Source: a virus (taxonomy: Duplodnaviria; Heunggongvirae; Uroviricota; Caudoviricetes). From it: a DNA stretch of 15,945 bases. Shown one piece after another: positions 4,382-10,738 of this stretch (position 1 is the first letter of the stretch; every line of letters starts with the position of its first letter). Made by a program: the position numbers and the translations under genes. The DNA lies in the IMG/VR virus record IMGVR_UViG_2698536395_000013. One strand, 5' to 3'. The notes under the pieces were generated by a model that saw nothing but the letters and a program-made list of their open reading frames with translations, had not been told where the DNA came from and made no database searches.

Positions 4382-4783
4382 TTATTTTAACTCATAGATC
4401 AGACAGTCAACGATTTCTAAACCATTTACCATAGAATTAGAAACGCGAACTTTACCATCGTTGACTCTAGCAAATCCTTTTAACATTTTATAAACAAAAG
4501 CTGAATCCCCCTTAGCCTCAATTGCTTCTAATGGTATCGGCTTATACTTTTTTGATATGCTATTTCTATTTATCTCACTGATTTTTCTATATATTTCTGC
4601 CGGCCCACGTTCTGAGAAGTCACTGATAACTAAAATATATCTCCAAGATAGATCTGGGTAATAAAACCACATTGCAGCATCAATAGTTAAATTCTGTAAC
4701 TTGAGTTTTTTTAACAAAAATTGACCTGAGAATTCCATATCTTTTGTCAACTCTCTGCCGATTACCAGTGTGCTTTTACCCAT
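4382..4783 (-). CDS. hypothetical protein, 133 aa, partner of the upstream HEPN gene
   Basis: ORF with GGAG SD 9 nt before the ATG at 4783; overlaps the HEPN stop by 22 nt, so the two genes are likely co-translated. AT-rich coding sequence. No motif recognised. Confidence 0.55.
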   Translation of the reverse strand: MGKSTLVIGRELTKDMEFSGQFLLKKLKLQNLTIDAAMWFYYPDLSWRYILVISDFSERGPAEIYRKISEINRNSISKKYKPIPLEAIEAKGDSAFVYKMLKGFARVNDGKVRVSNSMVNGLEIVDCLIYELK

Positions 4784-5178
4784 TTCAAAACTCCAGAATT
4801 TTGGTCACCTACAGCATCAAACAATTGTTCGGCCATAGCTTTACTTATGTTATTGTCGTATCTAAATTGCTCGCTCCAGTCTTTAACGACCGACCAGTTA
4901 ATCTCCAACGAAACATCATTTTTTGCGTCAGCAATCAAAATTTGATGTAAGTTGGCAATTTTGAGAAGTTGCGACAAATCATGAGTATATGAATCATTTA
5001 CGACTTTTTTGTTTGGAAACTCATGTTGTAAAAATGACTTGGCAATACAGGCCTTCAATGCACATTCAACTGCATACCCACAAAGATAATATGCACCATG
5101 AAAAAAGCCATGATCAAGCAAGCATTTGGCCTCATTAAGCCTAGTGTCAGATAATGCTTCAAGGTCGTTTTTATTCAT
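4762..5178 (-). CDS. HEPN-domain protein, 138 aa
   Basis: Translation ...EAKCLLDHGFFHGAYYLCGYAVECALKACIAKSFLQHEFPNKKVVNDSYTHDLSQLLKIANL... matches the classic HEPN helical pattern (A.E.ALKA ... tHDL..Ll). No canonical R-x4-6-H is visible before the His, so catalytic status is uncertain. Confidence 0.65.
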   Translation of the reverse strand: MNKNDLEALSDTRLNEAKCLLDHGFFHGAYYLCGYAVECALKACIAKSFLQHEFPNKKVVNDSYTHDLSQLLKIANLHQILIADAKNDVSLEINWSVVKDWSEQFRYDNNISKAMAEQLFDAVGDQNSGVLKWVKAHW

Positions 5179-5477
5179 ACAATTATAACTTGAATTATCC
5201 TAATTTTTATGATTATACCCTTATCAGGTATGATGTAGGAACTGAAAACAATATTGGATATCATTTTCGGTATTTCTCTGCAAATTCCAGCCCACAGGAT
5301 CTCGGTGTACAATCTGTCGCTGATCGCGCAAATTTAGGGTCAATCACTTCATTTTTTGCATCAAACCCTCACTAACATCGAACGATTATAGTACAAGTAG
5401 TGTTCTTGACTTCTCATTAAACCGTCAGCATTCAATTAATTACAAAATACTAGCGGCATTTCTCTCCCGCAACTTTA

Positions 5478-6221
5478 TTACAGCCGTTCAGAACGTAAAT
5501 GCGTCAATACTCGACTCCACTTATCATCCTGCCACGGCCGGAATTTTACATGTGCCGTTTCTCTGGCAAGGATTGCCTGTGCCTTATTGAGTATCCGGGG
5601 ATATTCTTGTTCGATTGAAGTGAAGCGACCGGCTTCGCGGTGTTCTGCTACCTGAAGAAGCGGAGTGACGTTTTGGCAAGCGGTTAACATTGTGTCACTT
5701 GCCCGCCATAACCAAGCAAGTGTGCAAAGTTCGTTATCAGTGAATTGTTTTGTGATTGGGGATTGTTGAATTTCTCGATCGAGAATATCCAGCACCCAGC
5801 GGCGGAATTCTTTGGCCACAGGAGTGCGGGCGAACATGGCGATCAGATGGGCGCCACGGAGGGAGAAAATGCGAGTCTTCTTACGATAATTTCCTGAGGT
5901 CGTTGATTCGACGACCTGAGACATTCCGTCAGTAAACTCATCAATATTTTTGTTGTAGATGTCGGTTACTGCTTTGGTGCTGGCATATTTTAATGCTGCC
6001 GCCAATTCTTTGCTGGTAAACCAGATCTGGTTGTTGTGATTTATAGGAGTGAATTTTACATCGCGGAATGCGAGCTGAGTGACCATAGCGATAATCTCGT
6101 TTTGAATTTGAGCTATCACCACCGACGACGCCAATCGACTGGTGGTGGACTGTGCAAGGTTGGCGTAACCGGTCAAAACGAAATCCGGCGCTTCCGAAGA
6201 AGCCCTCACACAGCCCACCAT
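5478..6221 (-). CDS. Bro-N domain protein (Roi / antirepressor-like), about 247 aa; start uncertain
   Basis: Translation contains FRDVKFTPINHNNQIWFTSKELAAALKYASTKAVTDIYNKNIDEF, which resembles the Bro-N DNA-binding domain. Start chosen at MVGCV (ATG 6221) because the longer track ORF (to 6323) would read through an intrinsic terminator at 6249-6270. A later start at MVTQ (6089) is possible. Confidence 0.55.
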   Translation of the reverse strand: MVGCVRASSEAPDFVLTGYANLAQSTTSRLASSVVIAQIQNEIIAMVTQLAFRDVKFTPINHNNQIWFTSKELAAALKYASTKAVTDIYNKNIDEFTDGMSQVVESTTSGNYRKKTRIFSLRGAHLIAMFARTPVAKEFRRWVLDILDREIQQSPITKQFTDNELCTLAWLWRASDTMLTACQNVTPLLQVAEHREAGRFTSIEQEYPRILNKAQAILARETAHVKFRPWQDDKWSRVLTHLRSERL

Positions 6222-6248
6222 AATTTTTGTGTAGACGTGCACTGCGCA

Positions 6249-6270
6249 TAAAAAAACCGCGAACGCGGTT
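6249..6270 (-). terminator. intrinsic terminator on minus strand (nin-region tR-like) immediately upstream of the Bro-N gene
   Basis: 6-bp stem AACCGC/GCGGUU with a 4-nt loop, followed on the minus strand by UUUUUUA (plus 6249-6254 is TAAAAAA). Confidence 0.5.
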
Positions 6271-6330
6271 ATGCGTCGTTTTGATGTCCGGGACGCCAAT
6301 CCCGTGTGCCGATTTTGCGGCAACGCACAG

Positions 6331-7390: not shown

Positions 7391-8092
7391 TCATACACTT
7401 GCTCCTTTCAGCCCAAACTTAGCTTTGATTTCTGCGATCTTCGCCAGAGCCTGTGCACGATTTAGAGGTCTACCGCCCATAACAGGAAGTTGTTTTACTG
7501 GTTCAGGTATCGTCTCACCACGGTTAATTCGCGCTGTCATACAGGTCAGTTCATCGGCAGCCTTGCGCCGTAATTCCGCGTCAGTCAGCGCATTGGCCCG
7601 CATGTTCTGGTACAGGTTGGTAACCAACCAGTAATGCGCGTTCGATTTCCACGGATAAGACTCTGCATCCGGATACAGGCCACGCTTCCGGCAATACTCG
7701 TAAACCATATCAACCAGCTCGCTGACGTTTGGCAGCCCGGCGTTAACGGATGCTTCTTCCCGGCACCATGCAACAAACTGCCCGGGTGATGGCAGAAATG
7801 GTCTATTCTGCCGACGGGCAACACGCATTCCGGCGCTCACCTGTTCCATCGTGGTGATCCCGTTTTCCCGGAAAGCCAGAACCCACTGGCGGCGGATTTC
7901 GTTCAGTTCGTTCTGGTCACGATTAGCCAGGCTCGCCGGGAAAGTTGCCAGTAACTGGCTGAATACACCGTTGATTATCTGCGCTACCTGCTGTACCTGC
8001 GGCTTTTCGTCGTACTGTTCCGGCATGTTGTTGGCGATCCGACGCATCTGCTCACGGTCAAAGTTAATCATCTGTGCGGCGATGTTTTTCAT
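7391..8092 (-). CDS. P: replication protein P (DnaB helicase loader), 233 aa
   Basis: Translation MKNIAAQMINFDREQMRRIANNMPEQYDEKPQVQQVAQIINGVFSQLLATFPASLANRDQNELNEIRRQWVLAFRENGITTMEQV...AKIAEIKAKFGLKGASV is close to lambda P as I recall it. ATG overlaps the O stop (ATGA). The extended track ORF (to 8197) is rejected. Confidence 0.9.
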   Translation of the reverse strand: MKNIAAQMINFDREQMRRIANNMPEQYDEKPQVQQVAQIINGVFSQLLATFPASLANRDQNELNEIRRQWVLAFRENGITTMEQVSAGMRVARRQNRPFLPSPGQFVAWCREEASVNAGLPNVSELVDMVYEYCRKRGLYPDAESYPWKSNAHYWLVTNLYQNMRANALTDAELRRKAADELTCMTARINRGETIPEPVKQLPVMGGRPLNRAQALAKIAEIKAKFGLKGASV

Positions 8093-9018
8093 AGATCCAC
8101 CCCGTAAATCCAGTCTGTGTTTGTCAGGTCGAGTTTTGGTTTGCCGACTGTCACGCCAGCCTGTTGCTTGTTCCGGTTGATTTCGAGCTGGGTCCACTTG
8201 TCGCGGAGTTTGGCCGGACTCAGCACGTTACCGGACCAGAAGTTGTCCTGGCAGGCCCAGCGGAACAGTACACACATGTCGCGGTGGTTACGTCCATCAC
8301 GTTCACGCATCAGACGGATATCGTTAGCCCACCCTGCAAAATTCGGTTTTCTGGCTGATGGCGCGATGGTCTTCACCATGTCAAACATCCACTCTGCGGC
8401 GGTCAGGTCTTCTGCTGTCCCCCACTTGCTGCCGCTCTGAATCGCAGCATCCGCTTTCACCACAGGAAGGTCGTTTTCTGGCAGGTCAGAGGATTCGCCA
8501 GAATTCTCGGACGAATAAGGTTTTATATTGTCTTTTGTTAGTTTGTCTTTTGTGTTTACCTGATTCGGGTAAGTGCCTTTACCTGATTTGGGTAAACTTT
8601 TCTTACCTGATTCAGGTAAATTTACCTCTTTCAGGTAAACTTTATTTTTCTTACCTGATTCGGGTAATGTTGACCATTCACTGACCACATTATTAATGCC
8701 GATATTCCGCCCGCTCTGAATAAAAATCCCACGCTTTACCAGAACACTTTTTGCAGCAGAACACTTGTGCGGCAATATCCCGGTCAACTCGGAAAGTTGC
8801 TCGTTGCTCACCCAGTCCAGTTTTTTATTAAAGCCATATGTTTTGCGCATGACAGCCAGGAAGACCAGAAGCTGGTGCTGTGTTAATCCGGCCAGCATTA
8901 CAGCTTCCAGCAACTCATTTGCAATGCGCGTATAACCATCATCGAGATCTGCCACGCGCGGCTCCTTTTGTGCCGCATCCGGCACTGGAAAATTGAATAT
9001 CTCAGCAGTGTTTGCCAT
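8089..9018 (-). CDS. O: replication initiator O, 309 aa; N-terminal iteron-binding domain diverged, C-terminal P-interaction domain lambda-like
   Basis: Starts MANTAEIFNFPVPDAAQKEPRVADLDDGY with GGGAGG SD. The C-terminal part AIQSGSKWGTAEDLTAAEWMFDMVKTIAPSARKPNFAGWANDIRLMRERDGRNHRDMCVLFRWACQDNFWSGNVLSPAKLRDKWTQLEINRNKQQAGVT is close to lambda O. The iteron array lies inside the gene. Confidence 0.9.
   Translation of the reverse strand: MANTAEIFNFPVPDAAQKEPRVADLDDGYTRIANELLEAVMLAGLTQHQLLVFLAVMRKTYGFNKKLDWVSNEQLSELTGILPHKCSAAKSVLVKRGIFIQSGRNIGINNVVSEWSTLPESGKKNKVYLKEVNLPESGKKSLPKSGKGTYPNQVNTKDKLTKDNIKPYSSENSGESSDLPENDLPVVKADAAIQSGSKWGTAEDLTAAEWMFDMVKTIAPSARKPNFAGWANDIRLMRERDGRNHRDMCVLFRWACQDNFWSGNVLSPAKLRDKWTQLEINRNKQQAGVTVGKPKLDLTNTDWIYGVDL
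8556..8667. repeat. ori iterons: five copies of a 17-bp near-palindrome TTACCTGATTCGGGTAA inside the O gene, next to an AT-rich segment (about 8500-8555)
   Basis: Copies at 8556-8572, 8579-8595, 8603-8619, 8622-8638 and 8651-8667 with 1-3 substitutions. Encoded as the repetitive LPESGK peptide in O. Confidence 0.8.
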
Positions 9019-9104
9019 AATTCCTCCCGCAATGAGTGTGTTACGATTTGCACCTGAAAGTCGGTTCTGTTCCAGCAGACCGGCTTTCGCCATTTCTGAA
9101 CCTG

Positions 9105-9644
9105 TCATATCGCCCCCAGCATGGTAGTAACCATCGCCATCAATGGACCAGCCAGCTCTGGGTCCACACGAAACATCGACACAATACCTTCACTAATTTC
9201 CTTCAGTTTCTGGTGGCGTGGTGCGTTGAGAATGACAGCCTGTTTTGCCTCACTGAGTTCCTTTTCCATTTCAGCCAACCTAGCCATGAAGCTATCCTGC
9301 TCAACCAGGTAACCGCGATATTCCAGCGGTAGTACCGCCAGAATTGCCGGGGTCAGTTCACGCACGTTATTTCGGTATTTTTCAGAATCGAATTTGTTAT
9401 CGAGGAAGCGGAACAGCTTCTGGCGTGTACGGCTGACATCATCAGGGAAATCGATGGTGCCGCCGCCCTGCTCCCGATACTCATTCACAATGAGTGTGGC
9501 AACGACATCCTGATTATCTACAGCCGACCAGGCGCGGACGGCATCACGGATTTTTTCGTGGCCTGGCACCTGTTTTGTTTGAGAACGATTTATCACCGCA
9601 GTCGGGCTAAATCCGCTAGTCTGTTGGTATGGAAGTGGTTGCAT
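9105..9644 (-). CDS. hypothetical phage regulatory protein in the cII position, 179 aa
   Basis: ORF with AAGGAG SD before the ATG at 9644, between cro and O. Much longer than lambda CII (97 aa) and no HTH recognised by eye. Functional assignment is positional only. Confidence 0.45.
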   Translation of the reverse strand: MQPLPYQQTSGFSPTAVINRSQTKQVPGHEKIRDAVRAWSAVDNQDVVATLIVNEYREQGGGTIDFPDDVSRTRQKLFRFLDNKFDSEKYRNNVRELTPAILAVLPLEYRGYLVEQDSFMARLAEMEKELSEAKQAVILNAPRHQKLKEISEGIVSMFRVDPELAGPLMAMVTTMLGAI

Positions 9645-9713: not shown

Positions 9714-9944
9714 TTAAGCTGCGTTCTTTTCGGTGTGTGGAAACAACTTCGGAAGATCCGGGCGAATCTGGTATGCCTTCACTACTCCACCAGTAGCCGT
9801 AACAATGCTGCCGACATGTTCAGGGGATACCTTTGCTTTGTTGTGAAGCCACTTATAGACGGCCTGCTGTGAAACTTCGCAGGCAGCGCCCAGTTTCTTT
9901 TGTGAACCAACGATATTGATCGCTGTTTTGATAGCTGGGTTCAT
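9714..9944 (-). CDS. cro: Cro-like HTH repressor (Cro/YdaS family), 76 aa
   Basis: Translation MNPAIKTAINIVGSQKKLGAACEVSQQAVYKWLHNKAKVSPEH contains a helix-turn-helix (QKKLGAACEVSQQAVYKW). GGAGG SD. Divergent from cI across an operator region. Confidence 0.7.
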   Translation of the reverse strand: MNPAIKTAINIVGSQKKLGAACEVSQQAVYKWLHNKAKVSPEHVGSIVTATGGVVKAYQIRPDLPKLFPHTEKNAA

Positions 9945-10048: not shown

Positions 10049-10738
10049 ATGAAAACAACACTCTCAGAAAGACTTAAAGAAGCCAGATTAGCGCGAGGCC
10101 TTACACAAAAGGCGCTTGGGGATTTGGTCGGGGTTAGCCAGGCTGCTATTCAGAAAATCGAAACAGGGAAAGCTAATCAAACAACTAAAATCGTGGAGAT
10201 CGCGAACGCTTTGGGTGTGCGCGCAGAATGGTTATCTTCTGGCGTTGGAAATATGTCAGACAGTACAGTGCAACCAATACAATCAACTGTCAGCCATTCC
10301 AAATACTTCAAGATTGACGTTCTTGATATAGAAGTCAGTGCTGGGCCGGGAGTCATCAACCGTGAGTTTGTAGAAGTTCTACGCTCGGTTGAGTACTCGT
10401 TTGACGATGCTCGTCACATGTTCGATGGTAGGAAGGCAGAAAATATCCGCATCATTAACGTGCGTGGTGACAGCATGTCAGGAACGATCGAACCAGGTGA
10501 TCTGCTGTTCGTTGATATCACGGTTAAATCTTTCGACGGTGATGGTATCTATGCATTTCTGTACGACGACACCGCCCATGTAAAGCGCCTGCAAATGATG
10601 AAGGATAAACTGCTGGTTATCTCTGATAACAAGAGCTACTCACCGTGGGACCCTATCGAGAAAGACGAGATGAACCGGGTATTCATATTCGGTAAGGTTA
10701 TTGGGAGCATGCCGCAGACGTACAGAAAACACGGATAA
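10049..10738 (+). CDS. cI: CI-type prophage repressor (N-terminal HTH, C-terminal S24 LexA-like autopeptidase), 229 aa, probably leaderless
   Basis: Translation MKTTLSERLKEARLARGLTQKALGDLVGVSQAAIQKIETGKA (HTH) ... INVRGDSMSGTIEPGDLLFVD ... VKRL (Ser/Lys dyad context). No SD; the ATG lies about 7 nt after the putative -10. The upstream in-frame ATG at 9983 lies inside the operator and is rejected. Confidence 0.85.
   Translation: MKTTLSERLKEARLARGLTQKALGDLVGVSQAAIQKIETGKANQTTKIVEIANALGVRAEWLSSGVGNMSDSTVQPIQSTVSHSKYFKIDVLDIEVSAGPGVINREFVEVLRSVEYSFDDARHMFDGRKAENIRIINVRGDSMSGTIEPGDLLFVDITVKSFDGDGIYAFLYDDTAHVKRLQMMKDKLLVISDNKSYSPWDPIEKDEMNRVFIFGKVIGSMPQTYRKHG

Follow-up and report, generated by a model that had tools for sequence, protein, structure and literature searches.

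The stretch of DNA analysed here, a viral record of 15,945 nucleotides (IMG/VR IMGVR_UViG_2698536395_000013; hereafter the window), carries on its minus strand the gene of a lambdoid prophage replication initiator, O, with its own origin inside the coding sequence. The question raised by this locus is whether O is built of two parts of different kinship, one that reads the origin and one that recruits the helicase loader, and whether the repeats of the origin belong with the first of these. A first-pass annotation made from the letters alone had read the gene in this way. We conclude that the region is very probably the replication module of a lambdoid prophage located at tRNA-Arg/intD in Shiga-toxin-type E. 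coli of the O26/O103 lineages, and that its O gene is a two-module recombinant. Such an arrangement is already known: it is classical lambdoid modularity in a common allele. In phage lambda the N-terminal part of O binds four iterons as dimers, the C-terminal part binds P and a flexible linker lies between them (PMC6022878; PMC4488673), and O proteins vary with origin specificity (PMC6022878; PMC4488673; PMC8022706; PMC2629481). The principle that the N-terminal domain goes with ori and the C-terminal domain with P dates to the 1970s–80s, as related in PMC6022878 and PMC2629481; the modular structure was derived from lambda-phi80 and lambda-82 hybrids (Furth & Yates 1978, as cited in PMC6022878 and PMC4488673), and the N-terminal 162 residues are described as enough for origin binding (Wickner & Zahn 1986, as cited in PMC2629481). 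The genes of the module are as follows.

~10049-10738, plus strand: S24-peptidase repressor gene, divergently transcribed
9714-9944, minus strand: Cro-like gene
9105-9644, minus strand: gene in the cII position, 179 aa, phi80-type CII (Pfam YdaT_toxin)
9019-9108, minus strand: optional in-frame 5' extension of O, 30 codons, with an ATGA overlap with the upstream gene
8089-9018, minus strand: O gene, 309 aa and stop
7391-8092, minus strand: P gene, 233 aa, lambda-type helicase loader (Phage_lambda_P, PF06992, E=1e-61)

The minus-strand reading frame that ends at 8089 is genuine. Read from 9018 it encodes 309 residues, of which 21-115 match the Pfam family Phage_rep_O (PF04492) with E=7.2e-34 and cover the full profile (1-95), and in homologous phage records at 96-97% identity the gene is labelled replication protein O. 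The start codon is ambiguous: a longer in-frame reading from 9108 gives 339 residues, and this is the form annotated by PGAP and in the Lambda_4C10 record. We favour 9018 because it is preceded by a GGGAGG ribosome-binding site, because all 12 of 12 O homologues share a start of the form M-x-N-[TL]-A at the equivalent point (MANTAE here, compared with MTNTAK in lambda O), because the phi80 reading frame is closed upstream of that point, and because variation across 76 loci in the 90-nt extension comprises three synonymous and eight non-synonymous changes, against 26:21 in the N-terminal domain. This evidence, drawn from sequence comparison, is suggestive, not decisive; the extension (9019-9108) is probably not translated, which would make the PGAP start 30 codons too long.

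The gene order cro, cII-position gene, O, P and the placing of the origin inside O are those of lambda. The start of P overlaps the stop of O (ATGA), as it does in lambda, and P itself is identical to lambda P at 226 of 233 residues (97%), so that the expectation of a lambda-type P alongside a lambda-like end of O was borne out. The gene upstream of O differs: lambda has its own cII there, whereas the protein encoded here is 66% identical to the one annotated as cII in phi80. Within O, the following segments can be told apart.

8671-9018, minus strand: part encoding the N-terminal origin-binding domain, aa 1-116, of a non-lambda specificity type (Pfam match at aa 21-115)
8509-8555, minus strand: A-rich, AT-rich segment (ACACAAAAGACAAACTAACAAAAGACAATATAAAACC...), presumed DNA-unwinding element and shared sequence at which the modules join
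8092-8517, minus strand: part encoding the lambda-type C-terminal domain, aa 168-309, for which binding of P is presumed from the lambda literature (PMC6022878)
7381-8555, minus strand: continuous lambda-homologous DNA comprising the AT-rich region, the O C-terminal domain and P (blastn, 94.2% over 1,175 bp)

The array of repeats lies between the two domains, at gene nucleotides 352-463 (aa 118-155), and consists of five palindromic iterons of 17 bp, TTACCYGAATCAGGTAA, with half-sites TTACC-N7-GGTAA. They occupy 8556-8667, exactly where the first-pass annotation had placed them, and read in the sense of O they are:

8651-8667: iteron 1, TTACCCGAATCAGGTAA, an additional copy lying 29 bp upstream of iteron 2
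8622-8638: iteron 2, TTACCTGAAAGAGGTAA
8603-8619: iteron 3, TTACCTGAATCAGGTAA, a perfect palindrome
8579-8595: iteron 4, TTACCCAAATCAGGTAA
8556-8572: iteron 5, TTACCCGAATCAGGTAA, the last copy, with lambda homology from the next base

A search of the whole window with the iteron pattern at up to two mismatches gave 11 matches, ten of which are the five palindromes found on both strands; the chance expectation is 0.05, and the observed count was reached in none of 200 shuffles. A search for the lambda-type iteron (TCCCTC-N5-GAGGGA) at up to three mismatches found none within O or close to it, which confirms that these repeats are unlike those of lambda. In their geometry the two arrays are alike. 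Both are made of 17-bp dyads directly followed by an A-rich segment, and iterons 2-5 are spaced, start to start, at 19/24/23 bp, compared with 20/24/23 for the four O-binding sites of lambda; the same geometry is found in P22, phage 2851 and PhiR12_5. The additional copy that brings the number from four in lambda to five here, iteron 1, is comparable to the two extra iterons of 933W.

Two simpler readings of the gene have to be set against a recombinant O with its own DNA sites. Were O merely lambda O that had diverged uniformly, identity should not change abruptly along the protein, yet the identity to lambda O is 49% over residues 1-116 and 96% (137/142) over residues 168-309; by blocks of 20 residues in a global alignment, identities number 4-14 up to about residue 160 and 18-20 from residue 181. 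The lambda-homologous DNA is a single blastn segment (lambda 39119-40293) that starts exactly after the last iteron. Moreover, the Klebsiella phage GZ7 has the same type of N-terminal domain with an unrelated C-terminal domain, and PhiR12_5 and SEN34 have the lambda type of C-terminal domain with other N-terminal types. Apart from the homology that the N-terminal domain still retains with that of lambda, nothing was found in favour of uniform divergence, and we regard it as almost certainly wrong. The alignment thus bears out a lambda-like C-terminus and a different N-terminal half, with a sharp junction at the boundary between the last iteron and the AT-rich segment; the extent of the lambda-like part needs correcting, from the 100 or so residues first proposed to about 155, 142 of them at 96%. 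It could also be argued that the recombinant has no DNA sites at this point, the iterons being a by-product of a peptide repeat, LPESGKK, in a flexible linker. The repeats do coincide with the stretch of the gene that encodes the linker between the domains, and the three at gene nucleotides 352, 400 and 424 encode LP(E/K)SGK. Those at 381 and 447, however, stand in a different codon position and encode the unrelated YLKEV and YPNQV, so that the repeat must have been kept at the level of DNA, not of peptide. Every copy is in addition a DNA palindrome, for which a peptide repeat has no need, and the spacing equals that of the proven O-binding sites of lambda. Finally, variation is lower in the iterons than in the spacers that separate them: in a set of 70 related full-length alleles (62 of them distinct) taken from viral contigs, the iterons have a nucleotide diversity of 0.005 and the 27 intervening spacer positions one of 0.055, with common polymorphisms at 0 of 85 and 4 of 27 positions, respectively (Fisher p=0.003). 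A peptide by-product is therefore very improbable, and codon positions, spacing and low diversity together argue for repeats that act as DNA sites.

If the iterons are sites read by the N-terminal domain, their sequence may be expected to vary with that domain, as had been suggested at the outset. We compared 12 O-type genes, hand-picked from annotated phage records, which fall into six iteron classes.

TTACC-N7-GGTAA: this window, Lambda_4C10, Klebsiella GZ7
TTACC-N5-GGTAA: P22
TTAGC-N7-GCTAA: SEN34, 2851
TCCCTC-N5-GAGGGA: lambda, 434, 933W
TGTCAC-N7-GTGACA: PhiR12_5
CGGGAA-N5-TTCCCG: phi80, HK225

N-terminal domains that are at least 83% identical share one iteron class, and nearly all pairs at 62% or below belong to different classes. 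Within the lambda class the domains of lambda, 434 and 933W are 98-100% identical to each other; O of the window stands outside it, at 49% and with a different iteron consensus, and is 83% identical in this domain to its GZ7 counterpart, 61% to that of SEN34 and 59% to that of P22 gp18. The C-terminal domains group otherwise. A lambda-type domain together with P is found in the window, 4C10, SEN34, PhiR12_5, lambda, 434 and 933W, a P22-type domain with a DnaB-like helicase in P22 and 2851, a third type with a DnaC-like loader in GZ7, and a phi80-type domain forms the fourth grouping of the panel. At the level of sequence it thus holds for these 12 proteins that iteron class tracks the N-terminal domain and is independent of the type of C-terminal domain and helicase loader. 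The exception to the identity rule is the pair SEN34 and 2851, which share half-sites though their N-terminal domains are only 39% identical overall. These two share the residues HHTH at the start of a segment that aligns with ILPHKCSAAKS in the window and LPVKRCNEAKL in lambda. From this alignment and a weak secondary-structure prediction we infer that the segment is the recognition helix, and the residues of O that would read the iterons are likewise putative. A sequence search found no solved O protein structure, and a single-sequence AlphaFold2 model of O had a mean pLDDT of 40 and a pTM of 0.26, too low to be of use.

The association was also seen among viral contigs. In 80 of 80 IMG/VR loci with the N-terminal type of the window the iterons are at the same positions, 75 loci having five exact copies and five having four; as these N-terminal domains are 95-100% identical, the loci show constancy within the class, not diversity between classes. 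Altogether the TTACC-N7-GGTAA iterons were present in 83 of 83 fetched loci of this N-terminal type and in none of nine loci of other types, and the co-variation of iterons and N-terminal domain is upheld by both comparisons. The C-terminal domain of O was lambda-type in all 75 of the 80 loci in which it could be scored, and nearly all have a P gene.

Where the two modules meet can be located closely. The last iteron ends, in the sense of the gene, at 8556, and homology to lambda runs from the very next base, 8555; in lambda, iteron 4 is annotated as ending at 39118 and the homology opens one base later, at 39119. On the 5' side of this junction the sole DNA match to lambda is a 23-nt island encoding VADLDDGY. 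DNA homology to GZ7 (80%) extends from the ribosome-binding site at 9027 down to 8526, in the middle of the AT-rich segment, and homology to lambda and PhiR12_5 begins at 8555/8568. With the GZ7 homology ending at 8526 and that to lambda beginning at 8555, the stretch 8526-8555 is common to both; its sequence, ACACAAAAGACAAACTAACAAAAGACAATA, is the start of the AT-rich segment 8509-8555, which is homologous to the AT-rich region of lambda, is 70% AT and is strongly asymmetric, its sense strand having 25 A and 8 T. The first 12 bases after the last iteron, ACACAAAAGACA, recur in every type examined except phi80/HK225, displaced by one base in P22 and PhiR12_5 and with C instead of A as the first base in SEN34. 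The crossover point is likely to have been this short shared sequence, and the conserved 12 bases right after the last iteron in particular. Among similar alleles, mean divergence from O of the window is 3.8% in the 3' half of the gene and 1.7% in the 5' half; a more diverse 3' half is in keeping with repeated exchange.

Among known systems, coliphages Lambda_4C10, 4A7, 1W, 3W, Perceval, PhiR26_1 and others share the allele, their O genes being full length and 96.3-97.3% identical in nucleotides; the five iterons and the order of cII-type gene, O and P are the same, and substitutions are few. GZ7 has five TTACC-N7-GGTAA iterons at identical gene positions; it differs in that the annotation of the partner downstream of its O gene is that of a loader of the DnaC/DnaI type and not of P. 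Of the classical systems, gene 18 of P22 is the closest to the specificity module. Its N-terminal domain is 65% identical by tblastn over aa 19-117, its iterons are spaced at 20/24/23 and the conserved 12 bases begin one base after the last of them. In P22, however, there are four copies, the half-sites are separated by 5 bp and not 7, and the C-terminal domain of gp18 is unrelated and has as its partner a DnaB-type helicase, gp12, where the window has P downstream.

Our working model of how the module would operate is taken by homology from lambda. The parts are a specificity module, made up of the N-terminal DNA-binding domain and the five matching TTACC-N7-GGTAA iterons, of the GZ7 type and with P22 gene 18 as kin, and a lambda-type module, made up of the AT-rich unwinding segment, the C-terminal domain of O and P. 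Dimers of O would bind each iteron through the N-terminal domain, as their lambda homologues do, and the bound O would assemble an O-some and distort the adjacent A-rich segment 8509-8555. The lambda-type C-terminal domain would then recruit P bound to host DnaB, and host chaperones would release the helicase. Since the iterons differ from those of lambda, the origin should fire only with its own type of O; P and the interactions with the host would be interchangeable with those of lambda.

The prophage is widespread. Its 930 bp of O are found unchanged (100% identity) in complete genomes of E. coli strains that include O26 and O103; there a prophage with ybcN, ninE, rusA, quuD and essD lies beside tRNA-Arg/intD, and PGAP names the gene 'replication protein'. 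A match to the O gene is present in 3,288 of 5,426 complete E. coli genomes and at least 80% of the gene in 2,368 of them. At least 1,000 contigs encode the exact protein, which belongs to a cluster named 'Replication protein O' with 7,825 members. At least 15 deposited phage genomes have the full-length allele, annotated as O, at 96.3-97.3% identity, and in several of these E. coli C or MG1655 is given as the host. The repeats were thus rightly called novel relative to lambda; the allele that bears them is a common one among publicly available genomes of phages and of E. coli.

Two further readings concern how distinct this origin is and whether it is still in use. Cross-reaction between O of the window and the P22 gene 18 origin would mean that its specificity is not distinct. 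The half-sites TTACC/GGTAA are identical in the two, and gp18 (59%) is, with SEN34 (61%), one of the two nearest non-identical N-terminal relatives in the panel. Yet widening the half-site spacer by 2 bp, from N5 to N7, shifts and also rotates one half-site relative to the other, the N-terminal domains differ at about two residues in five, including the putative recognition helix (ILPHKCSAAKS compared with MAPTKCSTAKN), and elsewhere in the panel an identity of about 60% goes with different iterons. We therefore consider cross-reaction improbable. A somewhat less remote reading, though still an unlikely one, is that the module is intact in sequence and silent, in a prophage that no longer replicates from this origin. 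DLP12 of K-12 is defective; the prophage occupies the same tRNA-Arg/intD site, shares the DLP12-like genes ybcN, ninE, rusA, quuD and essD and has pseudogene fragments nearby, and from its location at a DLP12-type site the replication module may be inactive here. Against this, O and P are full length, O is 100% identical in 15 of 15 strains among the matches listed (O26, O103 and others), the immunity region, O, P, the nin genes and Q are all present, and the same allele occurs in deposited complete phage genomes. The objection moreover concerns activity in one strain and not the nature of the element, which we take to be a lambdoid prophage with a recombinant O.

None of the four annotated records that we examined (Lambda_4C10, GZ7 and a RefSeq E. 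coli record among them) has the iterons annotated. A search of the accessible literature found no paper containing the iteron sequence, and a search for "five iterons" likewise gave nothing relevant. It is possible, and we put this forward tentatively and with some doubt, that the TTACC-N7-GGTAA iterons and their N-terminal domain form a specificity class never characterised experimentally or spelled out in print. The difference from the P22 class is a mere 2 bp in half-site spacing, at an N-terminal identity of 59%. If this is a new class, the two would be a natural pair for studying how half-site spacing is re-tuned by a dimer of the O type, and an occurrence in ~44% of complete E. coli genomes would bear on the replication compatibility of co-resident lambdoid and Stx prophages. 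The origin could equally be the classical origin of phage 82. The DLP12-type rusA/quuD genes of this prophage resemble those of phage 82, and no phage 82 record was among the phage-collection matches to O or to the 82-like Q/rusA region. Beyond correct annotation the locus is of little importance. It is a clean example of how lambdoid phages swap origin specificity separately from helicase recruitment by the O C-terminal domain and P, with a crossover that probably fell within the conserved A-rich stretch that follows the last iteron. Where several lambdoid prophages share one Shiga-toxin-producing E. coli, they could be classified by origin type.

A few observations lie to one side of these questions. 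The YdaS/YdaT Pfam matches upstream of O prompted us to consider ydaU of the Rac prophage as a relative of O; YdaU is a DUF1376 protein, and the candidate was rejected. At the cII/O junction, a search for an oop-like antisense RNA found neither a terminator-like site nor an Rfam match, and the plus strand has there a promoter-like match at 8993-9021 alone; such an RNA is not established. The eleventh match to the iteron pattern is at 5215-5231, with two mismatches. The chain of interactions shows itself in related loci, in four of which P is itself mosaic, its first ~100 residues being lambda-like, then phi80 gp14-like; the C-terminal domain of O in these four is lambda-type, and the lambda-like residues are the part of P that is said to bind O.

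The start of O, the replication initiator gene, differs between records; the features of this region are as follows.

8993-9021, plus strand: promoter-like site, TTGAAT-17-CATAAT with an upstream TG
9019-9108, minus strand: 5' extension of O from the alternative start (RefSeq/PGAP and Lambda_4C10 annotation)
9105-9644, minus strand: gene in the cII position, 179 aa, matching Pfam YdaT_toxin (E=7e-30)

In RefSeq/PGAP and in the record of Lambda_4C10, a phage with the same O allele, the gene starts at 9108 and encodes 339 aa, and the protein databases hold O in both this length and that of 309 aa. Homology and the substitution pattern favour the start at 9018 (309 aa), as does the ribosome-binding site. 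The promoter-like site is directed antisense, outward from the O start, and occupies the position of the lambda pO promoter for oop RNA; neither a terminator-like site nor an Rfam match was found downstream of it. The cII-position protein shares 66 % identity with a phage phi80 protein annotated as CII, and the family name 'toxin' is probably misleading here.

The O proteins of phages SEN34 (L006, 1501-2406) and 2851 (L091, 1453-2274) have N-domains with an identity of only 39 %, but they share a local HHTH motif where the putative recognition helix begins, and the half-sites of their iterons are the same, TTAGC/GCTAA. These shared features may point to the site at which specificity is read. 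In four related viral contigs (L016, L022, L029 and L047), P, the gene downstream of O, is itself mosaic, lambda-like over residues 1 to approximately 100 and phi80 gp14-like thereafter, yet the O C-domain is still of lambda type, consistent with co-inheritance of the O C-domain and the P N-domain.

Further features lie at lower coordinates.

4382-5178, minus strand: two small overlapping genes between the replication and nin regions
5215-5231: single iteron-like sequence, ATACCCTTATCAGGTAT, with two mismatches
6138-6225, minus strand: match to C4 antisense RNA (Rfam, 82.5 bits, above gathering score)
6250-6322, minus strand: match to isrK Hfq-binding RNA (Rfam, 64.1 bits, above gathering score)

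The iteron-like sequence is distant from the origin and is probably a chance match. In RefSeq, the product of one of the overlapping genes is annotated as a HEPN domain protein and that of the second as hypothetical; the two could form a toxin-antitoxin or defence pair. Both RNA matches lie directly upstream of a gene annotated in RefSeq as encoding a P22AR C-terminal domain (antirepressor-like) protein.
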